A stretch of 64,000 bases of DNA from the NCBI GenBank assembly GCA_963767005.1, contig CAVYCN010000004.1:320001-384000 (forward strand), written 5' to 3'. Source of the DNA: an uncultured Actinomycetes bacterium (GTDB taxonomy: Bacteria; Actinomycetota; Thermoleophilia; UBA2241). Both the position numbers and the translations under genes were made by a program. Below the pieces are notes generated by a model that saw only the letters and a list, made by a program, of their open reading frames with translations, was not told the origin of the DNA and searched no databases. Position 1 is the stretch's first letter. Each line of letters opens with the position of its first letter. Positions 30,662 to 47,521 of the stretch are shown piece after piece.

Positions 30662-31600
30662 TCAGGCGGCGCGCTCCCGAGTCTCGCCGGCCAGCCTGAG
30701 CTCGAGACCGGCGACCTCTTCGTAGAGGCGCACCGGCGACATCTCGCCGGCACCGTCGCCGAAGGCGGCCCGCGCCCGCCGGAACACCTGCTCGACCAGG
30801 GCGCTGAGCTCGACCGGCACGCCCTGGGCGCGCGCCAGGTCGACGGCGAGGCCGAGGTCCTTGCAGGCCAGGGCGACGGCGAAGCCGGGCTCGTAGTCGC
30901 CGTGACGCAGCAGCGGCAGCAGGTCGCGCTCGAGCAGCACGCTGTTCGCGGGGCTCGCGACGAGCGCGTCGTGGAGCACGGCCAGGTCGACGCCGGCGCG
31001 GGTCCCCACCGTCAGGACCTCGGTCACGGCGACGAGCGACGAGAACCAGAGCAGGTTGAGCAGGAGCTTCACGGTGTAGCCGGCCCCGTGGCCGCCGACG
31101 TGGCGGATGCCGGCGGGGTCACCGATCACCTCGAGGACCGGACGGACCCGCTCGAGGTCGTCCGCCTCGCCGCCCACGTAGATCGAGAGCGTGCCGGCAG
31201 CGGCACCCTTGCTCATGCCCGCGACGGGCGCGTCGAGCGTGCGGATGCCGCGCGCCGCGGCGCGGGAGCGCACCTGTTCGGCCACCGCCGGCGTCGACGT
31301 CGACAGGTCGACCCAGAGGGCACTGGCGGGCAGCGCCTCGAGCACGCGGCCCTCGCCGAGCAGGACGTCGGCGACCGCGGCGGGCGTGGGCAGGCTCGTG
31401 AGCAGCACCTCGGCGCCGCCGGCCGCGGCCGCGGCGGAGCGCGCACCACGCGCGCCGGCCGCGACGACCGGCGCCATCCGCCGCGCGTCGATGTCGAACA
31501 CGGTGAGGTCGAAGCCGGCCTGCGCGAGCCGCCGGCTCATGTGGCCGCCCATGCTGCCGAGGCCGACGAAGGCGAGGCGGCTGGTCGTGGCGCCGCTCAT
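30662..31600 (-). CDS. 3-hydroxyisobutyrate/6-phosphogluconate dehydrogenase-family NAD-dependent oxidoreductase
   Basis: FVGLG.MG..M, DAPV.G...A..GTL, G.G..VKL..N, KDL.LA. Confidence 0.9.
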   Translation of the reverse strand: MSGATTSRLAFVGLGSMGGHMSRRLAQAGFDLTVFDIDARRMAPVVAAGARGARSAAAAAGGAEVLLTSLPTPAAVADVLLGEGRVLEALPASALWVDLSTSTPAVAEQVRSRAAARGIRTLDAPVAGMSKGAAAGTLSIYVGGEADDLERVRPVLEVIGDPAGIRHVGGHGAGYTVKLLLNLLWFSSLVAVTEVLTVGTRAGVDLAVLHDALVASPANSVLLERDLLPLLRHGDYEPGFAVALACKDLGLAVDLARAQGVPVELSALVEQVFRRARAAFGDGAGEMSPVRLYEEVAGLELRLAGETRERAA

Positions 31601-32100
31601 GAGCGGCGGAAGAACGGGTTGACGGGTGTCTCGCCGGCGGCGAGGACGTCGTCGAGCGCCGGGAGCCCGGCGCTCGCGTTGCGCAGCGCGGCGAGCGTGG
31701 CCGCGCGGTTGTTGCGGTAGACGGCCTCCTCGTCGCTCGCAGCCGGGTTTACCCAGACGGCGGCGATCAGCAGCAGGTCGTCGGCGGCCGTGCGGGCGAT
31801 CGCGCCCTCGGCCACGGCGTCGGCGACGCCCCCGGCGACGCCGGCCTGCGCGGCGCCCCAGGTGAGGTCGCCGTGGCGCTCCGAGCCGATGGCCGCCTTG
31901 TTGACGAACAGGGTGAGCGGCTTGACGGCCAGGCCCGGCCGCACGACCGCCACGAACGGCACATGGCCGGCCCGGGGCGTGGCGAGCGCCGTCGCCCAGG
32001 CGGTCGCCACCGGCCCCTCGCGCGGCCCCAGCACCGTGTTCACGTGGGCGGCGTCGACGCCCTCGCCCACGAACGCCTCACCGATCAGCATCTCGTCCAT
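31597..32100 (-). CDS. fae: Formaldehyde-activating enzyme homolog
   Basis: IGE.FVGEG..AAH, GH.PF..V..P...VKP.TL.VNK, G.AQAGVA.GVAD.V; AAGGAG RBS before ATG 32100. Confidence 0.85.
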   Translation of the reverse strand: MDEMLIGEAFVGEGVDAAHVNTVLGPREGPVATAWATALATPRAGHVPFVAVVRPGLAVKPLTLFVNKAAIGSERHGDLTWGAAQAGVAGGVADAVAEGAIARTAADDLLLIAAVWVNPAASDEEAVYRNNRAATLAALRNASAGLPALDDVLAAGETPVNPFFRRS

Positions 32101-32262
32101 GCCTGCGCTCTCCTTCGCGACGACGGCGCGCCGGCACTGCGCCGGCGCAGTCCCACTCGTCGCCGCTCGGGGCCCGCACCAAACCGTGGAGGCCCGCTTG
32201 ACCCGACGATGAGGCCACCGGCCGATGTGGAGAGTTCGGAGCGCCACGATAGGCCTGTGCGG

Positions 32263-32305
32263 TAGAATATTCGTCGGTCGTCTTGACGGGCAGAACTTCT
32301 TGCTG
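32263..32305. promoter_or_regulatory. Divergent promoter region with possible Lrp-family boxes
   Basis: TAGAATATTCGTCGG (32263) and CAGAACTTCTTGCTG (32291) resemble the YAG-N9-CTR Lrp site; TTGACG at 32283. Confidence 0.35.
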
Positions 32306-32345
32306 GAACATTGAGGTCGGCCTGCATCTGAGTTGAGGAGGAGGC

Positions 32346-32810
32346 GTGGACCAGCTCGACCGCGAGATCCTCGTCGCGCTGCAGCACGAGGGGCGCAAGT
32401 CCAATCTGGCGCTCGCGCGCGAGCTCGACCTGTCGCCGTCGGCCATGCTGGGGCGCGTGCGCCGTCTCGAGCAGTCGGGCGCGATCCGCGGCTACCGCGC
32501 CGAGGTCGACCCCGCCGCCCTCGGCATCAGCGTGCAGGCGCTCACCGTGGTCAAGCTGCGCGAGCACAGCGAGCAGGCCATCCGCCAGTTCGAAGCCGCG
32601 GTCAAGGACGTCGTCGGGGTGCGCGCCTGCTACCACGTCACCGGGCAGTTCGACATGGTGATGGTGCTCGCCCTCCGCGACCTCGATCATCTCGCTCAGA
32701 TGATCCGGGTCGACCTGGCCCGCATCCCGGGCGTCATGCAGCTCGAGACCATGCTCATCATGGCGGAATCCGTGGCCGACCAGGGCTGGCCGGTCTTCAG
32801 CGAGGAATGA
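32346..32810 (+). CDS. Lrp/AsnC family transcriptional regulator
   Basis: D.LD..IL..LQ..GR.S...LA..L.LS......RV.RLE..G.I.GY; CYHVTG.FD. Confidence 0.93.
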   Translation: MDQLDREILVALQHEGRKSNLALARELDLSPSAMLGRVRRLEQSGAIRGYRAEVDPAALGISVQALTVVKLREHSEQAIRQFEAAVKDVVGVRACYHVTGQFDMVMVLALRDLDHLAQMIRVDLARIPGVMQLETMLIMAESVADQGWPVFSEE

Positions 32811-32856
32811 GACGAGCCGGCGCCTTCGGCGCCGGCTCGGCGCGAAGGAGGTACCG

Positions 32857-33708
32857 ATGCCGAAGAAGGGCGTCCTCGAGCTCACCGCGATGAAGCGTGC
32901 CGGCCAGAAGATCACCTGGCTGACCGCCTACGACTACCCCACAGCGTCGTTCGAGCAGGCCGCCGGCGTCGACATGATCCTGGTCGGCGACTCGCTCGGC
33001 ATGTGCGTGTACGGCTACCCGGGCACCGTGCCTGTCACCATGGACCAGTGCATCGTGCACTCAGAAGCCGTGCGCCGTGCCGCGCCCGACTGCTTCGTGG
33101 TCGGCGACATGCCGTTCATGAGCTATCAGGCGTCCGACGAAGACGCCGTGCGCAACGCCGGCCGCTTCTTGAAAGAGGCCGCCGTCGATGCCATCAAGCT
33201 CGAGGGCGGTGTGCGCATCGTCTCGCGCGTGCGGGCGATCCTCGACGCCGGCATCGTGGTCTGCGGCCACATCGGCCTGACGCCGCAGAGCTCTGGTCAG
33301 CTCGGCGGGCACAAGGCGCAGGGTCGCACGCTCGAGTCGGCCAAGCTCGTGGTCGACGACGCCCGCGCGCTCGCCGAGGCCGGCGTGCAGCTGCTGCTGC
33401 TCGAGGCCGTGCCGCCCGAGGTCGCGGCCTTCATCACCGCCGAGCTGACGATCCCGGTGCTCGGCATCGGCGCCGGTGAGGCGGTCGACGGCCAGCTCCT
33501 CATCGTGAGCGACGTGCTCGGCACCTTCCAGGCCTTCACGCCGAAGTTCGTGAAGAAGTACGCGGATCTCGCCGGCGTGGCGACGGCCGCCCTCACGGAG
33601 TACGTGACCGACGTGCGCGCCGGGCGCTTCCCCGAGGAGCAGCACTGCTACCGCATGCTCGAGGGCGAGCACGACCGCTTCCTGGAGTTCACGCGGCAGA
33701 AGGTCTGA
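32857..33708 (+). CDS. panB: 3-methyl-2-oxobutanoate hydroxymethyltransferase (PanB family)
   Basis: LTAYDYP, ILVGDSLGM, DMPFMSY, KLEGG, GHIGLTPQ, GIGAG, PKFVK.Y. Confidence 0.95.
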   Translation: MPKKGVLELTAMKRAGQKITWLTAYDYPTASFEQAAGVDMILVGDSLGMCVYGYPGTVPVTMDQCIVHSEAVRRAAPDCFVVGDMPFMSYQASDEDAVRNAGRFLKEAAVDAIKLEGGVRIVSRVRAILDAGIVVCGHIGLTPQSSGQLGGHKAQGRTLESAKLVVDDARALAEAGVQLLLLEAVPPEVAAFITAELTIPVLGIGAGEAVDGQLLIVSDVLGTFQAFTPKFVKKYADLAGVATAALTEYVTDVRAGRFPEEQHCYRMLEGEHDRFLEFTRQKV

Positions 33709-33711
33709 CGC

Positions 33712-34977
33712 TTGAACGCCGCCAACCTTCCCCCCAGCTCCCCCCGGCGCCGATTGGCGGGCGCCCGCGCAGCCGGCGCCCCGGGCGCCGCCCGCGTCGA
33801 CGACCTCGGCACCGAGACGGTGTTCGCGGTCGCGGCCGACTGTGCGGCGCTGGCCGCCACCGGTCGCACCGTCTATCCGTTCCACCTCGGCGACCTCAAC
33901 ATCCCGACCCCCGCCAACATCACCGAGGCGGCCTTCCGCGCGATCGCCGAGGGCAAGACCGGCTACTGCCCGAACGGCGGCATCGCGCCGCTGCGCGAGG
34001 CGATCGCCGCCGACGTCGGCGGCGCACGCGGCATCGCCTACGGCCCCGAGCACGTGAGCGTGCAGCCCGGCGGCAAGCCGGTGATTGGCAAGTTCCTGCT
34101 TACCCTCATGGACCCCGGCGACGAGGTGCTCTACCCGAACCCGGGCTTTCCCATCTACAGCTCGCTGATCGAGTTCTTCGGCGGCCGCGCGGTGCCCTAC
34201 ACCTACGTCGAGGGGCCGGAAGGCTTCGCCCTCGACCTCGAGCAGATCGAGCGCCTGATCACGCCGGCCACGCGGCTGCTCATCCTGAACGACCTGCACA
34301 ACCCCACCGGCGTGCAGTGCGCGCCGCGCGAGCTCGAACGCGTCGCCGACCTCGCCCGGCGCCACGACCTCTTCGTGCTCTCCGACGAGGCCTACTTCGA
34401 CGTACGGTACGCTGCTCCGAGCCGCTCAATCGCCAGCCTGCCCGGCATGCAGGAGCGCACGGTCATCCTCTACACGTTCTCCAAGAAGTACGCGATGACC
34501 GGCTGGCGGCTGGGCGCGGCGATCGGGCCGGCGTGGTTCATCGACGTCTGCACTACGCTCAACACGAACGTCGAGTCGTGCACCAACCATTTCGTGCAGG
34601 CGGCCGGCGTCGAGGCGCTCACCGGCGACCAGAGCGGCGCCCAGGCGATCCTCGCCGAGCTCGTGCGCAGGCGCGACGCGGCCTGCGACGCGCTCAACGC
34701 CTGCCCCGGCATCACCTGCCTGCGACCCGAGACCACGTTCTACCTGTATCCGAACGTGACCAGGGCGATGGCGCTCACCGGCCTGACCGATTACGAGGAC
34801 TTCCGGCGCGCCATCCTGGCCGAGACCGGGGTGTCGATGTGCACGCGCCTGCACTTCGGGCCCGAGCTGCCCGGCGAGACGCAGCGCTACCTGCGCTTCG
34901 CCTACTCGGGTCTCGAGGTGGAGCGCATCGAGGAGGGCCTCGCGGCGCTGCGCACGTTCCTCGAACAGCGCGCGTGA
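33712..34977 (+). CDS. Class I/II PLP-dependent aminotransferase
   Basis: GGKP, P.PGFPIY, NPTG, SDEAY, FSKKYAMTGWRLG; start codon uncertain. Confidence 0.92.
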   Translation: MNAANLPPSSPRRRLAGARAAGAPGAARVDDLGTETVFAVAADCAALAATGRTVYPFHLGDLNIPTPANITEAAFRAIAEGKTGYCPNGGIAPLREAIAADVGGARGIAYGPEHVSVQPGGKPVIGKFLLTLMDPGDEVLYPNPGFPIYSSLIEFFGGRAVPYTYVEGPEGFALDLEQIERLITPATRLLILNDLHNPTGVQCAPRELERVADLARRHDLFVLSDEAYFDVRYAAPSRSIASLPGMQERTVILYTFSKKYAMTGWRLGAAIGPAWFIDVCTTLNTNVESCTNHFVQAAGVEALTGDQSGAQAILAELVRRRDAACDALNACPGITCLRPETTFYLYPNVTRAMALTGLTDYEDFRRAILAETGVSMCTRLHFGPELPGETQRYLRFAYSGLEVERIEEGLAALRTFLEQRA

Positions 34978-35095
34978 CGCCGCGCTCCCCGACAAGACCA
35001 CGCGTGACGGCGCCCGAACGACGGGCGGTGCTACGCTGCCAGGTGACCGGAACGGTCGTCGACCAGTCCATGACCATGCGGAGGAGACAAGGACG

Positions 35096-36547
35096 ATGAA
35101 AGAGGTTCGTGACCCGGCGATCACCGGTCGACTGACCGTGCTGAGCCAACAGGGCAAGCAGGACATCTACGCCGCCGCCGTGCGCATCGTGAGCGAGATC
35201 GGCATGCGCGTGCCGCACCAGACCTCGCGCGACATGCTGCTCGCCGCGGGTGCGACCGTCGCAGACGGCGACCTCGTGCGTCTCACGCCCGCCATGGTCG
35301 AGCAGGCGCGCGCGACGGCGCCCGCGTCGTTCAGCGTCTACGACCGCAACGGCGAGCCGGCCATGGAAGTCGGCAGGTACCACAGCTACTTCGGCACGGG
35401 CTCCGACCTGATGGAGATCTACGACCTCGAGACCGGTGAGCCGCGCGAGAGCGGTCTAGCCGATGTGGCGCGCGCCGCGCACCTTTGCGACGGCCTGCCG
35501 AACATCGACTTCATCATGTCGTGCGCCTACCCGCACGACGTGCAGCCCGCCTCGCGCGCCTACCTCGAGAGCTTCCGCGCGATGATCACCAGCACCACCA
35601 AGCCGATGGTCATGACGGCCGAGGGCGCCGGCGACCTCGAGGTCATGTGGCGCATCGCCTGCGCGCTGCGCGGCGGCGAGGACGAGCTGCGCGCCAAGCC
35701 GTACTTCATCATGTACGGCGAGCCGGTCAGCCCGCTCAAGCACGCGGTCGAGGTGCTCGACAAGCTCCTCTTCTGCGCCGACAAGGGCATCCCGGCGATC
35801 TACTCGCCGGCGCCGAGCGCCGGGGCGACCGCACCGATCACGCAGGCCGGCCACATCGTGCTGGCCGTCGCCGAGTCCCTCTTCGGCCTCGTCATCCACC
35901 AGCTCCGCGTGCCGGGCGCGCCCTTCATCTTCGGCATGGGCCCGGTCAAGATCGACATGTCGACGCTCCAGGCCCTCTACAACTCGGCCGAGTACTACAC
36001 GACCATCCTCGGCATCTGCGAGATGGCCAAGTGGCTCGACCTGCCCAACTGGGGCTATGCCGGCTCGAGCGATTCGCACGTGGTCGACGCCCAGGCCGGC
36101 ATGGACGCGGCCGAGCTCACCATGCTGTCGATGCAGGCCGGCTCCAACCTGAACCACGACATCGGCTACCTCGCCTTTGGCCTGATCGGCGCCCTCGAGC
36201 TCGTGGTGATCACCGACGAGATCGTGTCGCTCAACCGTCGCACGTTCGAGGGCATCGAGGTGAGCCCCGAGACGCTCGGCTACGACGTCATCGCCAAGGT
36301 CGGCCCGGGCGGCAACTTCCTGCGCGAGAAGCACACCGCCAAGTACGTGCGCGGCCAGCAGTGGATGCCGACGATCCTGAACCGCAAGACGCGCGAGAAC
36401 TGGAAGGCCGACGGCGCCCCCGACCTGCGCGAGCGGGCCCGCCGGCGGGCGCTCGACATCCTCGCCGATCACAAGCCCGAGCCCATCCCCGCCGCCCTCA
36501 TGGAGAAGGTCGACGCGCTGACCGACTCCTACCAGCCGGTGGCGTGA
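35096..36547 (+). CDS. MttB-superfamily (non-pyrrolysine) corrinoid methyltransferase 1
   Basis: PVSPL, GATAP.T.AG, Q...PGAP.IFG, D...DAQAG; Ser at the position equivalent to Pyl; no in-frame TAG. Confidence 0.9.
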   Translation: MKEVRDPAITGRLTVLSQQGKQDIYAAAVRIVSEIGMRVPHQTSRDMLLAAGATVADGDLVRLTPAMVEQARATAPASFSVYDRNGEPAMEVGRYHSYFGTGSDLMEIYDLETGEPRESGLADVARAAHLCDGLPNIDFIMSCAYPHDVQPASRAYLESFRAMITSTTKPMVMTAEGAGDLEVMWRIACALRGGEDELRAKPYFIMYGEPVSPLKHAVEVLDKLLFCADKGIPAIYSPAPSAGATAPITQAGHIVLAVAESLFGLVIHQLRVPGAPFIFGMGPVKIDMSTLQALYNSAEYYTTILGICEMAKWLDLPNWGYAGSSDSHVVDAQAGMDAAELTMLSMQAGSNLNHDIGYLAFGLIGALELVVITDEIVSLNRRTFEGIEVSPETLGYDVIAKVGPGGNFLREKHTAKYVRGQQWMPTILNRKTRENWKADGAPDLRERARRRALDILADHKPEPIPAALMEKVDALTDSYQPVA

Positions 36548-36583
36548 CGGGGCGAGGCGACCGCGCGTCGCGCGGGTGACGCG

Positions 36584-37966
36584 GTGATCGACGAGGCGGG
36601 TCTCGAGGCGATCCACGCGGGTGCGCTGCGCCTGCTGTCCGACGTTGGGTGCGCGGTGCTCTCGTCCGAGGCGCTCGCGCTGTTCGCCGCCGCCGGTGCG
36701 GCGGTCGACGGTCGCCGCGTGCGTATCGGCGAGCGGCTCGTGGAGCGCGCGCTCGCGACGGCGCCGGCCGGCTACACCGTAGCCGGCCGGCGCCCCGAGC
36801 TCGACCGCGCTGTCGGCGCCGGCGCCGCGCCGGTGCTGTGCTCGGCTTCGGGCCCGGCCTTCGTGCTCGAGCGCGGTGAGCGGCGTCACGGCACGCTGGC
36901 CGACATGCGTGAGGCCGTGGCGCTGTTCCACCAGTCGGCCAACCTCGACGTCTACGGCATCGCCATCACGCCGCTCGACGTGCCCGAGGAGCGCCGGCCG
37001 CAGGTGGTCGGCCACGCGATCGCGACGGGCACCGACAGGCCGTCGCGCGTCGACGTCACGACCGAGCTCGAGCTGCAGGTCGCCATCGACGTCGCCGAGA
37101 TCGTCCACGGCGCCGACTGGCACTTGCGTCCGCGCCTGTGGATCGTGATCAACTCGACCTCACCGCTGCAGCTCTCGGCCGAGGCCTGCCGGGCCGTGCT
37201 GCGCCTCGCCCGCCTGGGCCAGCCCGTCTGCCTGACCGCCTGCGCGATGGCCGGCACCACGGCGCCGGTCACGCCGGCCGGCCTGCTCGCCGTGCAGCAC
37301 GCCGAGCTGCTCGCCGGCCTCGTGCTCACCCAGCTCGCGGCTCCGGGCGCTCCGTTCCTGTACGGCGGCACGTCGTCGGTGTCGTCCATGCACAGCGGCG
37401 CGCTGCTCATGGGCGCGCCCGAGTTCTGGCCGCTCGTCGAGGCCACGGTCGCGTTGGGCCACCGGCTCGGGCTGCCGGTGCGGGCCGGCGGCGCGCTCAC
37501 CGACTCCCACCTGCCCGACGCCCAGGCCGGCATCGAGTCGGCCCTCGCCCTCGACGCGGCCCTGCGCGCCGGCGTCGACTTCGTGCTGCACGCCGCGGGC
37601 ATCCTCTCGTCGTTCAACTCGTTCTCCAAGACGAAGCTCGTGACCGACGACGAGCTGATCGGGCTCCTGCGCCGCGCGCATCGCCCGATCGTGGTCGACG
37701 ACGAGACGCTGGCCCTCGACGTCGTGGCGGCGGCGGGGCCGGGCGGCACGCTGCTCGGCCAGTCCCACACGCGCCGCCACGCCCACGAGGCCGGGCCCGA
37801 CGGCCTCATGAACCGCGATCCTTACGAGACCTGGAGCGCTCAGGGTGGCTCCGACCTCGCCGCGCGCGCCGAGCGGCGCGTGGCCGAGCTGCTCGAATCG
37901 TACCGGCCGCCCGACGACCTCGACCCGGTCACCCGCCGCCAGCTCGACGAGTACTGCCTGGGGTAG
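36584..37966 (+). CDS. MttB-superfamily (non-pyrrolysine) corrinoid methyltransferase 2
   Basis: IN.TSPL, MAG.TAPVT.AG, PGAP.LYG, GAPE, RAGGALTDS..PDAQAG.ES, HAAG.L. Confidence 0.9.
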   Translation: MIDEAGLEAIHAGALRLLSDVGCAVLSSEALALFAAAGAAVDGRRVRIGERLVERALATAPAGYTVAGRRPELDRAVGAGAAPVLCSASGPAFVLERGERRHGTLADMREAVALFHQSANLDVYGIAITPLDVPEERRPQVVGHAIATGTDRPSRVDVTTELELQVAIDVAEIVHGADWHLRPRLWIVINSTSPLQLSAEACRAVLRLARLGQPVCLTACAMAGTTAPVTPAGLLAVQHAELLAGLVLTQLAAPGAPFLYGGTSSVSSMHSGALLMGAPEFWPLVEATVALGHRLGLPVRAGGALTDSHLPDAQAGIESALALDAALRAGVDFVLHAAGILSSFNSFSKTKLVTDDELIGLLRRAHRPIVVDDETLALDVVAAAGPGGTLLGQSHTRRHAHEAGPDGLMNRDPYETWSAQGGSDLAARAERRVAELLESYRPPDDLDPVTRRQLDEYCLG

Positions 37967-37982
37967 ACCGGCTCAGGCGAAG

Positions 37983-38022
37983 GGCGCGGGCGCCGGCGGC
38001 CAGGGTCGCCGGCGCCCGCGCC
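37983..38022 (+). other. Long intra-operon hairpin before the corrinoid gene
   Basis: GGCGCGGGCGCCGGCGGCC...GTCGCCGGCGCCCGCGCC. Confidence 0.55.
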
Positions 38023-38081
38023 GCGACAGACAGACGACTACGAACGCGACGAGAGATCGCTTTGACACGAAGGAGGACCTG

Positions 38082-38732
38082 GTGAGCGACGAACTCTACG
38101 CAAAGATGGCCCAGGCGGTGATCGACGGCGAAGACGACAGCGCCGCCGCCTTGGCCCAGCAGGGCCTCGACGCCGGCCTCAGTGCGGCCGACATCCTGGA
38201 CAAGGGCTTCGTCAAGGGCATCGAGACCGTCGGCGAGCTGTTCGGCAAGGGCGAGTTCTTCCTGCCCGAGCTGGTCCAGGGGGCCGAGGCCATGAAGGCC
38301 GCGGTGAAGGTCCTGCAGCCCGCCCTGGATGCCTCCAAGGAGGGCCGCAAGGCGACCGGCATCGCGGTCGCCGGCACGGTGGCCGGCGACATCCACGAGA
38401 TCGGCAAGACGATCGTCTGCTCCATGCTCAGCGCGGCCGGCTTTGAGGTCACCGACGTGGGCTGCGACGTGGCCCCCGAGACCTTCGTCGCCACCTGCCA
38501 GTCCGTCAAGCCCGACCTGCTGCTGCTCAGTGCCCTGCTGACCACCACCATGCCCAACCAGCAAAAGACGATCGAGGCCCTGAAGGCCGCCGGTCTGCGC
38601 GAGTCGATCAAGGTGATGATCGGCGGCGCCCCGACGACGCGCGCCTGGGCCGATGAGATCGGCGCCGACGGCTACGCCGAGGACGCCATCGAGGCCGTGA
38701 GTGCCGCCAAGGGCCTGCTCGGCGTGGCCTGA
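38082..38732 (+). CDS. Methyltransferase cognate corrinoid (B12-binding) protein
   Basis: GE.FLPEL...AEAM, GTV.GDIHEIGK, LSALLTTTM, IGGAP.....A..IGADGY; AAGGAGG RBS before GTG. Confidence 0.94.
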   Translation: MSDELYAKMAQAVIDGEDDSAAALAQQGLDAGLSAADILDKGFVKGIETVGELFGKGEFFLPELVQGAEAMKAAVKVLQPALDASKEGRKATGIAVAGTVAGDIHEIGKTIVCSMLSAAGFEVTDVGCDVAPETFVATCQSVKPDLLLLSALLTTTMPNQQKTIEALKAAGLRESIKVMIGGAPTTRAWADEIGADGYAEDAIEAVSAAKGLLGVA

Positions 38733-38901
38733 GCCGACAGCCGGCTCACCCGCTTTTCGTCGCCCACAGCGACGGACCCGGTGAGGGCGGGGGCGGGCGG
38801 CGCGCACGTGCGCGCCGCCCGCCCCCGCCGTCTTCGTGCCGCCGGCCCGGCGTGGCTCGGCGCGAGCATTGTCGGCGGCGGCGGCGTAGACTGCACTGGC
38901 C

Positions 38902-40170
38902 ATGGCCGAGCACGACGACATCAGAGCGCGCCTGCGCATCGAACCCGCCGACCTCGAGGCGGTCAACGCCTTCTTGAGCGACCCCGACAACCCCTTCGTC
39001 ACGAGCCTGCTCGAGGTCGTCGACCGGTACGGCGGCGTCGACGCGGTCAATCGCGCGGCCGACGAGGCCGGCCGCCTCGAGAACCGGCTCGCGCGCCTGC
39101 GCGAGGAGCACTCCACCTACCTTGCGGACGTCGAGTGGCTGGCCGAGCAGCGCGACGCGGGCCGCTTCGTCAAGCTGGCCGACTACCGCGACGCCGTGCT
39201 GGCCGACGCCCCGGGCGCCGCGGCGGGCGGCGACGCGAACGCCGTGACGCTCGAGATCAGCGCCCTGCAGTTCTTCCCCTGGCTGATCGCCGAGGCCCGC
39301 GAGGCGATCGAGCGCCGCGAGCTCATGCCGGGGCGCTTCATCCGCGAGCGCAACATGGCCGAGCAGTCGCGCCCCGGCGGCGACCTGCTCGCGGTGTGCG
39401 CGGCCATGCAGGTGATCGGTGCGACGCATGTCGAGAGCCTCGACACGCGCGGCATCGACGGCGCCAACCTGATGGTCGGAGTCGAGACGATCGCCGGGTA
39501 CTTCGGCGGCATCGGCGAGCCCAACGAGCACGTCCTGCGCTGGGTCGACGAGCACCTGCACTACCTCACCGAGTTCGGCGTGCGCGAGGTCCTCAACTTC
39601 AACATGGGCACCATCCTCGCGGCCTTCGTGCTGCGCAAGCTGGGCGTGCGCAACCACTTCAAGATCTCGGTCTTCATGGGCGTCGACAACCCCTGGTCGG
39701 TGCTCTGGCTGCTCATGGGCGCGCGCCTGCTGGGCGGCGGCGCCGGCGGCACGAGCCTGAGCGGCATCAACTTCTCGAACTCGGCCGACTCCGACACGCT
39801 GCGCGGTGCGTCGGCGGCGCGCGAGGCCCTGGGCCTGCGCGACGCCGTGCGCTTCGAGCACCACGTGACCGAGGCCTACAAGTCGATCGTGCGCCAGCCC
39901 TACGAGCGCCGCGCCGAGGTCGTCGAGATCGCCGCCGACGTGCCCAACATCTCGGCAGAGCACGAGGGCGGCGACCCCGCGGTCGAAGCCGGTCGCAAGC
40001 ACCGCAGCGACATCCTCGACTACTTCATCTCCGAGAACGTGATCGTCGCCGCCGGCGCCATGGAGGCGCTGCAGCGCAACTACTTGGATAAGCACGCCGC
40101 GCTCAACCACACCGCCGCCGACCTCATCCGGGCCGGCATCGGGGTCAAGCCGGCGAGCCTGTTGCACTAG
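38902..40170 (+). CDS. Uncharacterised 422-aa soluble enzyme-like protein
   Basis: Long ORF with strong GC3 bias; polar motifs ESLDTRG.DG.N, FKISVFMG.DN, RFEHH.TE, A.HEG; family not recognised. Confidence 0.8.
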   Translation: MAEHDDIRARLRIEPADLEAVNAFLSDPDNPFVTSLLEVVDRYGGVDAVNRAADEAGRLENRLARLREEHSTYLADVEWLAEQRDAGRFVKLADYRDAVLADAPGAAAGGDANAVTLEISALQFFPWLIAEAREAIERRELMPGRFIRERNMAEQSRPGGDLLAVCAAMQVIGATHVESLDTRGIDGANLMVGVETIAGYFGGIGEPNEHVLRWVDEHLHYLTEFGVREVLNFNMGTILAAFVLRKLGVRNHFKISVFMGVDNPWSVLWLLMGARLLGGGAGGTSLSGINFSNSADSDTLRGASAAREALGLRDAVRFEHHVTEAYKSIVRQPYERRAEVVEIAADVPNISAEHEGGDPAVEAGRKHRSDILDYFISENVIVAAGAMEALQRNYLDKHAALNHTAADLIRAGIGVKPASLLH

Positions 40171-40197: not shown

Positions 40198-40977
40198 ATG
40201 ACCGAGACCTCAGATCCCGCCGACCACGTCGCGCGCAACGCGGCGGTCTGGAACGAGCGGGCCGCCGACTTCGTGGCGCCCGGCGAGGCCAACTGGGCGG
40301 CCGCCGAGCCGAGCTGGGGCATCTGGGGCGTTCCCGAGTCCGAAGCTCACGTGCTTTCCGACGATCTCGCCGGCCTCGACACGATCGAGCTCGGCTGCGG
40401 CACCGCCTACGTGTCGGCCTGGCTCGCGCGCCGCGGGGCGCGGCCGGTCGGCGTCGACGTCTCGACCGAGCAGCTTGCCACGGCGCGCCGGCTGCAGCAG
40501 GAGCACGGCCAGCCGTTCCCGCTGCACGAGGTGAGCGCCGAGCACCTGCCCTTCGCCGACGAGAGCTTCGACTTCGCGATCTCCGAGTACGGCGCCTGCC
40601 TGTGGGCCGACCCGCACCTGTGGGTGCCCGAGGCGGCGCGCGTGTTGCGGCCCGGCGGCCGGCTGACCTTCCTGACCAACGGCACCATCCTGATGCTCTG
40701 CATGCCCGACGCCGTCGACGAGCCGGCCGCCGACCGCCTCGTGCGCGACTACTTCGGCATGCATCGCTTCGAGTGGGTCGACTCACCCGAGGTCGAGTTC
40801 CATCTCGGCTACGGCGACTGGATCAGGCTGCTGCGCGCCAGCGGCTTCGAGATCGAGGACCTGATCGAGCTGCGGCCGGCGACGGGCGCGGCGGCGGTCT
40901 TCGCCGACATCGTCGACCTCGAGTGGGCGCGGCGCTGGCCCTGCGAGGAGGTCTGGAAGGCGCGCAAGCGCGCCTGA
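40198..40977 (+). CDS. Class I SAM-dependent methyltransferase
   Basis: IELGCGTAY, GVD.S..QL, LPF.DESFD...S, EAARVLRPGG. Confidence 0.9.
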   Translation: MTETSDPADHVARNAAVWNERAADFVAPGEANWAAAEPSWGIWGVPESEAHVLSDDLAGLDTIELGCGTAYVSAWLARRGARPVGVDVSTEQLATARRLQQEHGQPFPLHEVSAEHLPFADESFDFAISEYGACLWADPHLWVPEAARVLRPGGRLTFLTNGTILMLCMPDAVDEPAADRLVRDYFGMHRFEWVDSPEVEFHLGYGDWIRLLRASGFEIEDLIELRPATGAAAVFADIVDLEWARRWPCEEVWKARKRA

Positions 40978-44201: not shown

Positions 44202-44594
44202 GTGGCCGACGAGAGCTATCCCGATGATCTGAAGTACTTCAAGGAGCACGACTGGGTGCGGGTCGCCGGCGACGAGGCGACCTTCGGCATCACCTGGTGG
44301 GCCCAGGACGCGCTCGGCGACATGGTCTACGCGAGCCTGCCCGACGCGGGCGCCGCGGTCACGGCCGGACAGCCCTACGGCGAGCTCGAGTCGGTCAAGT
44401 CGGTGGCCGAGATCTACGCGCCGGTGAGCGGCCAGGTGGTGGCCGCCAACGACGCCCTCGTGGCCGACCCCGCCCTGGTGAACGCCGATCCCTACGGCGA
44501 CGGCTGGCTCATCCGTGTGCGCCTGTCCGACCCCGCAGAGCTCGACGGACTGATGGACGCGGCCGCCTACAGGGAGCTGCTGGCGACGGCCTGA
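44202..44594 (+). CDS. gcvH: Glycine cleavage system H protein
   Basis: YP.DL.Y..EH.W, GIT..AQ..LGD, lipoyl motif ESVKSV, N.DPYG.GW. Confidence 0.95.
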   Translation: MADESYPDDLKYFKEHDWVRVAGDEATFGITWWAQDALGDMVYASLPDAGAAVTAGQPYGELESVKSVAEIYAPVSGQVVAANDALVADPALVNADPYGDGWLIRVRLSDPAELDGLMDAAAYRELLATA

Positions 44595-44634
44595 CGCCGG
44601 CCGGGCGGCCGCGAGACGAGGGAGGTACGCGCGC

Positions 44635-45994
<1,360 letters not shown>

Positions 45995-46002
<8 letters not shown>

Positions 46003-47521
46003 GATCCCGATCGCCGCCACACCGGCCGCCACCGCCTTGCACACCATCTTCGAGAAGTCGCGGCCCGGGCGCCGCGCCTTCAGTCTGCCCGACGCCGGTC
46101 TGCCGTCGACCCCGGCCGGCGAGCTCCTGCCCGGCGTCGCCCTGCGGGCGCGGCCGGCACGCCTGCCCGAGATCGCCGAGGTCGACCTGGTGCGCCACTT
46201 CGTCGAGCTGTCGTCGCGCGACTTCGGCGTCGACAAGGGCACCTATCCGCTGGGCTCGTGCACCATGAAGTACAACCCGAAGATCAATGAGCGCGTGGCC
46301 GCGCTCGAGGGCCTGCGCGGCCTGCACCCCTACGAGCCCGAGGAGCTCGTGCAGGGCGCGCTCGAGCTCATGGACACGCTCAGCCGCTGGCTCGCCGAGG
46401 TGGCCGGCCTGGCCCGCGCCACGCTGCAGCCGGCGGCCGGCGCCCACGGCGAGCTCACCGGCCTGCTGCTCGTGCGGGCCTACCACGACGACCGCGGCGA
46501 CGGTCGCCGCGTCGTGCTCATCCCCGACACGGCGCACGGCACCAACCCGGCCTCCGTCGTAATGGCCGGCTACCAGCCCGTCACGGTGTCGAGCGACGCG
46601 CGCGGCGGCATCGACCTCGAGGCCGTGCGCTCCCTGGTGACCGAGCGCGGCGCCGAGATCGCCTGCCTCATGCTCACCAACCCCAACACCCTGGGGCTGT
46701 TCGAGGCCGACATCGTCGCGGTCGCGCGCCTCGTCCACGATGCCGGTGGGCTGCTCTACTACGACGGCGCCAACTCGAACGCCGTGCTGGGGCGCTCGCG
46801 GCCCGGCGACATGGGCTTCGATATCGTCCACCTGAACACGCACAAGACGTTCTCGACGCCGCACGGCGGCGGCGGCCCGGGGGCCGGACCGCTCATCGTG
46901 CGCGACATCCTCGAGCCCTACCTGCCGGTGCCGGTGCTGCGCAAGACCGGAGAGCACGCCTTCACGCTCGACTACGACCGGCCCAGGTCGATCGGCAAGG
47001 TGCGTTCCTTCTACGGCAACTTCGGCGTGCTCGTGCGGGCCTACGCCTACATCCGCGCGCTCGGCGCCGAGGGCCTGCGCGAGGTGAGCGAGGCGGCGGT
47101 GCTCAACGCGACCTACGTCCTGGCCGGCATCCGCGACCTGTTCGAGGTGCCCTACGACCGGCCCGTCATGCACGAGTTCGTGGTGTCCGCCGAGCCCCTG
47201 CGCGCCCACGGCGTGCGCGCCCTCGACGTGGCCAAGCGCCTGCTCGATCACGGCGTCCACCCGCCGACCACCTACTTTCCGCTGATCGTCAAAGAGGCGC
47301 TCATGGTCGAGCCGACCGAGACCGAGTCGAAGGCCGACCTCGACGCCTTCGTCGCCGCGGTGCGCGCGGTCGTCGACGAGGCCCGCACCCGGCCCGAGCT
47401 GCTCACGGCGGCGCCGTACACCATGCCGGTCGGGCGTCTCGACGAGGTCGGCGCCGCGCGCAACCCCGTGCTGCGTCAGCGCTTTGCCGACGACCAGCCG
47501 GTGACGGTGACGCCCCAGTGA
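45995..47521 (+). CDS. gcvPB: Glycine dehydrogenase (decarboxylating) subunit B
   Basis: YPLGSCTMKYNP, QPAAGAHGE, AHGTNPAS, HLN.HKTFSTPHGGGGPG, EPTETES. Confidence 0.95.

Follow-up and report, generated by a model that had tools for sequence, protein, structure and literature searches.

We analysed a 64,000-nucleotide stretch of the genome of an uncultured Thermoleophilia bacterium (the window; contig CAVYCN010000004.1, C4:320001-384000 of genome G000 in our numbering), where an operon joins PanB', a paralogue of the ketopantoate-forming enzyme PanB, to a pyridoxal-phosphate (PLP) aminotransferase, two non-pyrrolysine MttB methyltransferases, a corrinoid protein and U422, an unnamed 422-residue protein (Table 1). 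PanB' belongs to a clade of its own with a distinct pocket, it is decoupled from panC, and its main role is very probably not in pantothenate synthesis. The compound that it cleaves is probably 4-hydroxy-2-oxobutanoate (HOB). More tentatively, and with somewhat less than an even chance in our judgement, an N-methylated homoserine would lose its N-methyls, become HOB by transamination and then be split into pyruvate and methylene-tetrahydrofolate (methylene-THF). The individual reactions, their direction and their substrates are what we infer from sequence and gene context. The source genome is 3.4 Mb long, 100% complete and 4.9% contaminated. Genes were called from Pfam and NCBIfam profile scores against the family cut-offs and by reading the open reading frames (ORFs). 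The order and strands of all nine genes up to and including U422 agree with an initial annotation of the same DNA, as does the lack of a panC or panD adjoining panB in the window. That annotation had proposed a scheme of corrinoid-dependent demethylation, transamination, PanB-type cleavage and formaldehyde capture by Fae; the gene linkage and the non-pantothenate role of PanB' are supported, and capture by Fae as a conserved step is not.

The position of PanB' was examined in two trees, both quick IQ-TREE searches with SH-aLRT support only, and rows with fewer than 230 aligned residues or with stops were excluded from the trees and from the residue counts. In a 90-row set, which was picked largely via U422 and is therefore biased, 69 rows form one clade (SH-aLRT 97): all copies with U422, the aminotransferase or MttB1 as a neighbour fall inside it, and all 12 copies adjoining panC fall outside. 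Clostridial corrinoid-linked copies also fall within this clade (SH-aLRT 91). PanB' resembles the PanB of E. coli (1M3U) and M. tuberculosis (1OY0) in its fold and in the equivalents of D45/S46/D84/K112/E114/H136/E181, and it passes for a biosynthetic PanB by its TIGR00222 and PF02548 scores and its metal and catalytic residues; D45, D84, K114, E116 and H138 are invariant across all 90 rows. It differs from PanB in a clade never seen beside panC, in its pocket, in an SGQ loop, in a Ser in place of His216 and in a patchy distribution tied to catabolic neighbours. Residues 181, 214 and 216 of the window protein correspond to V179, I212 and V214 of the E. coli enzyme in a gap-free alignment to 1M3U, and we take V179 to have a pocket role for the gem-dimethyl substrate. 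Within the clade these positions are Leu in 69/69, Leu in 66/69 and Ile in 69/69 rows, whereas outside it they are Val or Ile in 20/21, Val or Ile in 21/21 and Val in 21/21, so that PanB' (L181/L214/I216) lacks the Val/Ile-Val pocket of the biosynthetic enzyme. In E. coli ketopantoate hydroxymethyltransferase (KPHMT), I212 and V214 are described as governing the size of the nucleophile (PMC7610986), and I202A, I212A and V214G as broadening the nucleophile range (PMC7610986, PMC7611260); the bulkier L/L/I pocket suggests a smaller 2-oxo acid, such as pyruvate. A less biased control of 120 Clostridia drawn evenly gave PanB in 25 genomes and 30 loci. Its 18 best-scoring copies all have Val at position 216, and 17 of them adjoin panC or panG. 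Six copies have the L/L/I pocket and lie beside U422 (two, one of them in the centre genome), an aminotransferase (one) or a corrinoid gene (two), or on a short contig or at a contig end (one); six further copies are divergent, partial or fragments, and one of these six (L260), with an F/A/V pocket, belongs to the clade. In G431 (L284:7309-10984) an in-clade PanB with an F/A/V pocket is flanked by genes for an HMGL-like enzyme and for a class IV aminotransferase; it is possibly a further neofunctionalised PanB.

Evidence for HOB as the compound cleaved comes from U422. Homologues of this protein number 7,339 among 8,000 candidates scored. Its predicted structure (pLDDT 83) is a (beta/alpha)8 barrel preceded by helices at the N-terminus. 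Sequence searches of Pfam, NCBIfam and the PDB returned nothing, matches in the ESM Atlas were all below 0.8, and a profile-free search of 50% representatives returned no named distant relative. Structural comparison pointed to nothing more specific than a TIM barrel, with a best Foldseek E of 1e-4 (TM 0.35) and a best VIA-align Z of 12.3 (rmsd 4.0, 233 aligned residues) with 50 unrelated barrels within 1.6 Z; the families compared were class II aldolase, BKACE, xylose-isomerase-like and GH18 barrels. Among 80 U422 loci from Desulfobacterota, Spirochaetota, Chloroflexota, Thermotogota, Bacillota and Actinomycetota, PanB lies at most 2.6 kb upstream in 45 and Lrp is present in 28. U422 also occurs in 9/400 Clostridia, where PanB' adjoins it in 6/8 loci read, and in 26/251 Thermoplasmatota genomes. 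In this archaeal group the partner is another one: homoserine dehydrogenase (Hom) lies directly downstream of U422 in 16/20 loci, with AOR next in 12, an aldehyde dehydrogenase in 3 and, in many, an aspartate-type aminotransferase. Residues E118, R148, R150, K254, E319, H320, H321, H354 and E355 of U422 are invariant. Around the mouth of the barrel, 20 archaeal and 97 bacterial rows share the same polar residues, and thus one U422 reaction likely feeds both exits. The simplest intermediate common to the two is likely homoserine/HOB, and these alternative partners support the hub that had been proposed from the window alone. The archaeal layout matches the homoserine branch of the canavanine pathway of Pseudomonas canavaninivorans, in which, as described in PMC9533460, a gamma-substituent is removed to give homoserine and Hom with an aldehyde dehydrogenase then leads to aspartate, a proven route. 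The entry enzyme given there is PLP-dependent, whereas U422 is an unrelated TIM barrel, and the bacterial exit proposed here is HOB cleavage rather than oxidation. We considered whether U422 replaces panC or panD and dropped the idea; its archaeal partner is homoserine dehydrogenase, and panC-bearing members of the family are mostly without U422. A second U422 copy in the source genome (67% identical, C3:191270-192544, L126) has cyclase, polysaccharide-deacetylase-like, glutamine-synthetase-like, amidohydrolase and M20 genes as neighbours, and in the closest relative, G011, the gene after its orthologue is 76% identical to the window aminotransferase.

A plasmid of the cultured betaproteobacterium Polaromonas (CP087967.1) carries U422 behind a TyrR-like activator, with SDR, OsmC, Lrp and methionine-gamma-lyase-family genes as neighbours (L183:14956-21225). 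The last two lie about 3 kb from U422 and would suit an entry through sulfur, in which methionine or S-methylmethionine is the substrate, the MttBs take S-methyls, the aminotransferase then forms the 2-oxo acid, and U422 turns this into HOB by thiol elimination and hydration, for cleavage by PanB'. On chemical grounds a gamma leaving group on 2-oxobutyrate would be beta to the ketone, and U422 is spread over amino-acid-fermenting anaerobes that have no MttB partners. However, Polaromonas is one locus and its lyase falls below the methionine gamma-lyase cut-off, and the BCCT betaine transporter and opine-dehydrogenase-like gene of the clostridial loci (below) point to N-alkyl chemistry. The MttB substrates reported in PMC12155760 are trimethylamine or quaternary amines. 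We regard the sulfur entry as unlikely.

An MttB gene as a neighbour is unremarkable in itself, because the source genome has 41 MttB matches, several of them with in-frame TAG; both window copies are open frames. What lies above chance is that the same two MttB subtypes recur with the PanB' clade in two phyla. Linkage of PanB' to the aminotransferase, both MttBs and the corrinoid protein is conserved across genomes. The aminotransferase directly follows PanB' in 7/8 PanB-positive genomes of the same genus, and in other genera as well. The series PanB'-aminotransferase-MttB1 is found in six of these eight, with one contig ending after the aminotransferase, and across the genus the panB-U422 interval ranges from nothing at all to MttB arrays of about 30 kb. 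Lrp-PanB'-(aminotransferase)-MttB1 recurs in G023, G041, G042, G043, G045, G047, G048 and G051 with an MttB1 identity of 54-70%. In these Thermoleophilia loci AOR (five loci) and a GlpD-like gene are often next, and an OCD-family gene lies between the two MttBs in two.

Clostridia provide an independent case of PanB' joined to the same two MttB subtypes. In G365 and G456 two MttBs face a BCCT transporter, an opine-dehydrogenase-like gene, PanB' and a corrinoid gene, and the module also has a racemase; G456 includes two pterin-binding methyltransferases in the module and retains a separate panC-adjacent panB. The trio of opine-dehydrogenase-like, PanB' and corrinoid genes was found in 20/20 loci, from 22/102 genomes of that clostridial order, and the clostridial locus L281 holds two methyl-corrinoid:THF methyltransferase-type genes. 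The clostridial B-type MttB (about 30% identity) has window MttB2 as its best match in the source genome (179 vs 156 and 182 vs 166 bits), and the top match of the A-type is a 59%-identical MttB1 paralogue, MttB1 itself ranking third to fifth. The opine dehydrogenase and racemase would deaminate an N-methyl amino acid in place of the aminotransferase, a role for which we presume a stereochemical reason.

The two window MttBs share about 32% identity. At the pyrrolysine site (7XCL alignment) MttB1 has Ser and MttB2 Leu, neither has an in-frame TAG, and both score below the TIGR02369 cut-off and fall outside the pyrrolysine MttBs. Together with the cognate corrinoid protein they resemble MtgB/MtgC/MtgA of Desulfitobacterium hafniense (2QNE/9YCE) and MtpB, MtcB, MtyB and MthB of E. 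limosum, each a non-pyrrolysine MttB with its cognate corrinoid protein. At the positions of MtgB Y97/R312/H348/F356, MttB2 reads S/R/H/F (3/4) and MttB1 S/W/H/G (1/4), so that neither has the full four-residue set for glycine betaine; MttB1-types carry an aromatic residue in place of the MtgB Arg, and the Arg, His and Phe retained in MttB2-types are described as binding glycine betaine in MtgB (PMC13080624). Unlike the Mtg system, the window has two divergent tandem MttBs, an operon without MtgA, and a coupling to transamination and to an enzyme that cleaves C-C bonds; the role given for described non-pyrrolysine systems in PMC12155760 is methyl transfer to THF. MttB1-subfamily genes (49-64% identical) also occur directly after an AOR gene in 8/35 metagenome loci (L195, L196, L208-L213).

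These neighbourhoods would also suit proline or hydroxyproline betaine as the substrate. The MttB pair would then demethylate it, the ring would open, and PanB' would act as a pyruvate-specific class II aldolase releasing an amino-aldehyde or glyoxylate to be oxidised by AOR. Two MttBs match two N-methyls, the OCD-family and AOR genes of the Thermoleophilia loci would find a place, E. coli KPHMT is described as taking aldehydes besides formaldehyde (PMC7610986), and the aconitase X, OCD and sarcosine-oxidase-like genes of the clostridial loci fit hydroxyproline betaine as well as homoserine betaine, which counts against the latter. However, the aminotransferase of the window is of class I and a proline-type enzyme is lacking there, and the copy that immediately precedes U422 in G011 shares 96% identity with the window PanB', U422 itself having homoserine dehydrogenase as its archaeal partner. 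We therefore consider a proline-type betaine improbable.

PanB' could also be simply the housekeeping panB at an insertion hot spot, making ketopantoate, with the aminotransferase giving 2-oxoisovalerate from valine and with the MttB block and fae as unrelated islands. The initial annotation had held that its scheme would fall if this were the only panB, were ketopantoate-specific and had a linkage to mttB and fae that was not conserved or co-regulated. A second, housekeeping panB was sought in the 100%-complete source genome and none was found, and this genome has panC, so that ketopantoate synthesis is possible too and PanB' may also make some; the linkage to MttB and corrinoid genes is nonetheless conserved. 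The abundance of MttBs in this genome and the varying panB-U422 interval within the genus also suit this explanation, as does the TIGR00222 score. The panC of the source genome lies on contig C3 with no panB, beside a Rossmann-type gene that we take by eye to be DUF2520/PanG-like, and panD was not found in this genome. Among 24 relatives of the same family (f1, G001-G024) panC is present in all and panB in only 10; the 14 without panB include near-complete genomes, and five panC-positive family genomes at 94-100% completeness gave no PF02548 match. This pattern suggests salvage of ketopantoate or pantoate, or an unknown PanB analogue, in the genomes without panB. In other families of the class panB adjoins panC and is 40-55% identical to the window copy (8/8 loci). 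The family thus does without a panC-linked panB, and the window PanB' is an accessory gene. Of 50 U422 genomes, 28 have at least two PanB copies and 27 have no panC match, and genomes with two copies retain a separate panC-adjacent PanB. PanB' hence lacks the linkage to and co-distribution with panC that mark a biosynthetic PanB. Clade-specific pocket residues, recurrence with the MttB pair in Clostridia and decoupling from panC support the non-pantothenate role, and make housekeeping distinctly improbable.

Least probable is the assimilatory direction, a natural homoserine cycle in which betaine methyls give methylene-THF, PanB' adds it to pyruvate to form HOB and the aminotransferase makes homoserine: a genome with many MttBs, Fhs and no acetyl-CoA synthase match may need a one-carbon assimilation route, and HOB formation from pyruvate and formaldehyde is reported as established in engineered cells (PMC8879981), but the source genome has an ordinary lysA-hom-thrC locus (by eye), the AOR or aldehyde dehydrogenase of archaeal U422 operons suggests oxidation, and the transporter and opine-dehydrogenase partners suit catabolism. 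The synthetic homoserine cycle (HOB aldolase RhmA/YfaU with a HOB aminotransferase) shares its HOB chemistry and aminotransferase step with the operon (PMC7918591, PMC8879981); unlike the operon it is engineered and assimilatory and uses free formaldehyde. HOB is termed a non-native metabolite in PMC8879981.

The pathway that we favour would start from homoserine betaine, which as a free compound is reported to occur naturally (PMC11166142) and might be freed from the head group of the lipid diacylglyceryl-trimethylhomoserine (DGTS). Judging by family and motifs, MttB2 and then MttB1 would strip N-methyls onto the corrinoid protein, and for the third methyl a further enzyme, or a dehydrogenase of OCD/opine type, encoded outside this operon, might be responsible. 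The aminotransferase would turn the demethylated product into HOB, and PanB', as its pocket and partners suggest, would cleave HOB by a retro-aldol reaction to pyruvate and methylene-THF. U422 would provide a second entry by removing a gamma-substituent to give homoserine or HOB, and Lrp would control the operon. That the MttB pair feeds HOB from homoserine betaine is possible, and we propose it tentatively.

Several observations weigh against this pathway. Three methyl groups must come off a trimethyl substrate before it can be transaminated, and the operon encodes two MttBs only; the window operon has no transporter gene and no methyl-corrinoid:THF methyltransferase, a 40%-identical homologue of the latter lying on C3. 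The pocket changes are conservative, E. coli KPHMT is described as promiscuous (PMC7611260), and one PanB inside the clade (L260) has an F/A/V pocket. The Thermoleophilia relatives are kin and not independent counts, and in the closest of them, G011, the order is fae-lrp-panB'-U422 with no aminotransferase-mttB-mttB-corrinoid block, which speaks against a single obligate operon. A test of five clostridial genomes, among them G365 and G456 with their MttB-PanB' module, did not find U422, and MttB1-like genes were found in only 8/38 non-Thermoleophilia U422 genomes. The U422 and MttB entries are therefore separable, and U422 is a separate entry, not a required step. Two cases that agree with homoserine/HOB as the hub are single observations: an Anaerolineae genome in which no PanB was found (G082) has a tandem pair of DHDPS-Fae fusion genes just after U422 (L112:6921-9813), by domain content a putative class I aldolase with a formaldehyde trap, and in one database protein a DHDPS domain is fused to U422.

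A lead to the origin of the methylated substrate comes from a block of SDR, FGGY kinase, FAD enzyme and ETF genes. In 7/8 Thermoleophilia loci read this block immediately precedes Lrp-PanB', and a GlpD-like gene lies downstream. The closest solved structure to the FAD enzyme is alkyl-dihydroxyacetone-phosphate (alkyl-DHAP) synthase (4BBY, E 1e-40). By alignment it keeps the equivalents of Arg419, Tyr578 and His617, presumably functional residues of that synthase, and would qualify as one; it is also 64% identical to an E. coli protein that we take to be YgcU. Oxidation, phosphorylation and ether exchange are what glyceryl-trimethylhomoserine from DGTS would need, and the block hints at glyceryl-ether cleavage of this head group. 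DGTS is reported from green algae and non-flowering plants (PMC8752610). The block is near U422 in G007, G001 and G004. Against it stand its place on another contig in the source genome (C6; FAD gene at C6:61656-63095, or L324:12657-14096) and the presence of the FAD enzyme in only 9/80 genomes outside the family, for which the alkyl-DHAP-synthase-like gene was dropped as a cross-phylum member. Among 19 family genomes tested, eight have both FAD enzyme and PanB', nine have neither and two have PanB' only, a co-occurrence that linkage alone could explain. Anaerobic degradation of DGTS as a whole, with glyceryl-ether cleavage by the alkyl-DHAP-synthase-like enzyme or U422, complete corrinoid-dependent demethylation by the MttB pair and THF-dependent cleavage of HOB by a neofunctionalised PanB', is in our view rather doubtful.

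Table 1. Genes of the operon and its flanks, with positions in the window.
Feature	Position	Strand	Remarks
HIBADH/tartronate-semialdehyde-reductase-family NAD dehydrogenase	30662-31600	-	below all equivalog cut-offs
Fae-family protein	31597-32100	-	TIGR03126 152 bits, cut-off 118
Lrp/AsnC regulator	32346-32810	+	kept upstream of PanB' and/or U422
PanB' (PanB paralogue; predicted HOB hydroxymethyltransferase/retro-aldolase)	32857-33708	+	TIGR00222 313 bits, cut-off 208
Class I/II PLP aminotransferase (predicted homoserine:2-oxoacid transaminase)	33712-34977	+	profile match
MttB1, non-pyrrolysine (predicted second demethylase)	35096-36547	+	open frame; Trp replaces the carboxylate-binding Arg of MtgB
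MttB2, non-pyrrolysine (predicted amino-acid-betaine demethylase)	36584-37966	+	MtgB R312, H348 and F356 kept; Ser at Y97
Corrinoid protein, MtgC-like, cognate	38082-38732	+	TIGR02370 223 bits, cut-off 215
U422, 422-residue (beta/alpha)8 barrel	38902-40170	+	no Pfam or NCBIfam match; polar active-site set invariant
Class I S-adenosylmethionine (SAM) methyltransferase	40198-40977	+	after U422 in close relatives only

Divergent from the operon, fae and the HIBADH-like gene overlap by 4 bases. Fae passes the family cut-off and in this resembles the methanopterin-pathway Fae of Methylorubrum extorquens, from which it differs in its pairing with the HIBADH-like gene and in the lack of that pathway: Mch and Ftr gave 0 matches in the 100%-complete source genome, with positive controls, and Fhs is present. 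Fae occurs in 11/73 related genomes, and the HIBADH-like gene follows fae in every Thermoleophilia Fae locus read. As fae stands beside Lrp-PanB' in this genus only (4/8 PanB-positive relatives) and no Mch or Ftr match was found, Fae was rejected as a conserved member of the pathway, contrary to the initial annotation; with the HIBADH-like gene it forms an accessory pair. Fae may trap leaked formaldehyde, which is conceivable because of the DHDPS-Fae fusions beside U422.

Further observations concern the surroundings and the rest of the genome. The SAM methyltransferase after U422 is probably a bystander, and a scan for promoters and terminators gave nothing above shuffled sequences. Glycine cleavage H and P1/P2 genes (by eye) lie 4 kb downstream at 44211-47521 and are a possible sink or source of methylene-THF. 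A 764-bp copy of window positions 38069-38832, spanning the whole corrinoid gene and its flanks, is present at C3:214130-214893 with 99.9% identity in an unrelated context and reflects either recent duplication or an artefact of the assembly. In the region C19:127834-138913 a frameshifted gene with 68% identity to the window aminotransferase has BKACE-like, threonine-dehydrogenase-like and dihydroxyacetone-kinase-like ORFs as neighbours (by eye). Besides the MttBs the genome has split dimethylamine-methyltransferase-like genes; Fhs was found and an acetyl-CoA synthase match was not. The organism is probably a methylamine and betaine specialist with probable use of pyrrolysine and without the carbonyl branch of the Wood-Ljungdahl pathway.

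We found no description of the module, of U422, of a catabolic PanB clade or of homoserine-betaine breakdown in the open-access literature. New here are the pocket signature with its control sample, the joining of U422 and MttB modules via one PanB clade, the triangulation on homoserine and the ether-enzyme lead. If our reading is true, thousands of panB annotations are misread as vitamin B5 synthesis and would really be markers of amino-acid catabolism, and a three-residue pocket would tell them apart. Two MttB subfamilies would also gain substrates and the more than 7,000 unnamed proteins of the U422 family a function, and a natural, pyruvate-specific and THF-linked HOB enzyme would be useful for synthetic methylotrophy. 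The pathway would be a first candidate for how homoserine betaine and DGTS are broken down anaerobically. If the DGTS pathway holds, HOB would be a natural metabolite and U422 the founder of a family of homoserine-releasing enzymes in bacteria and archaea.

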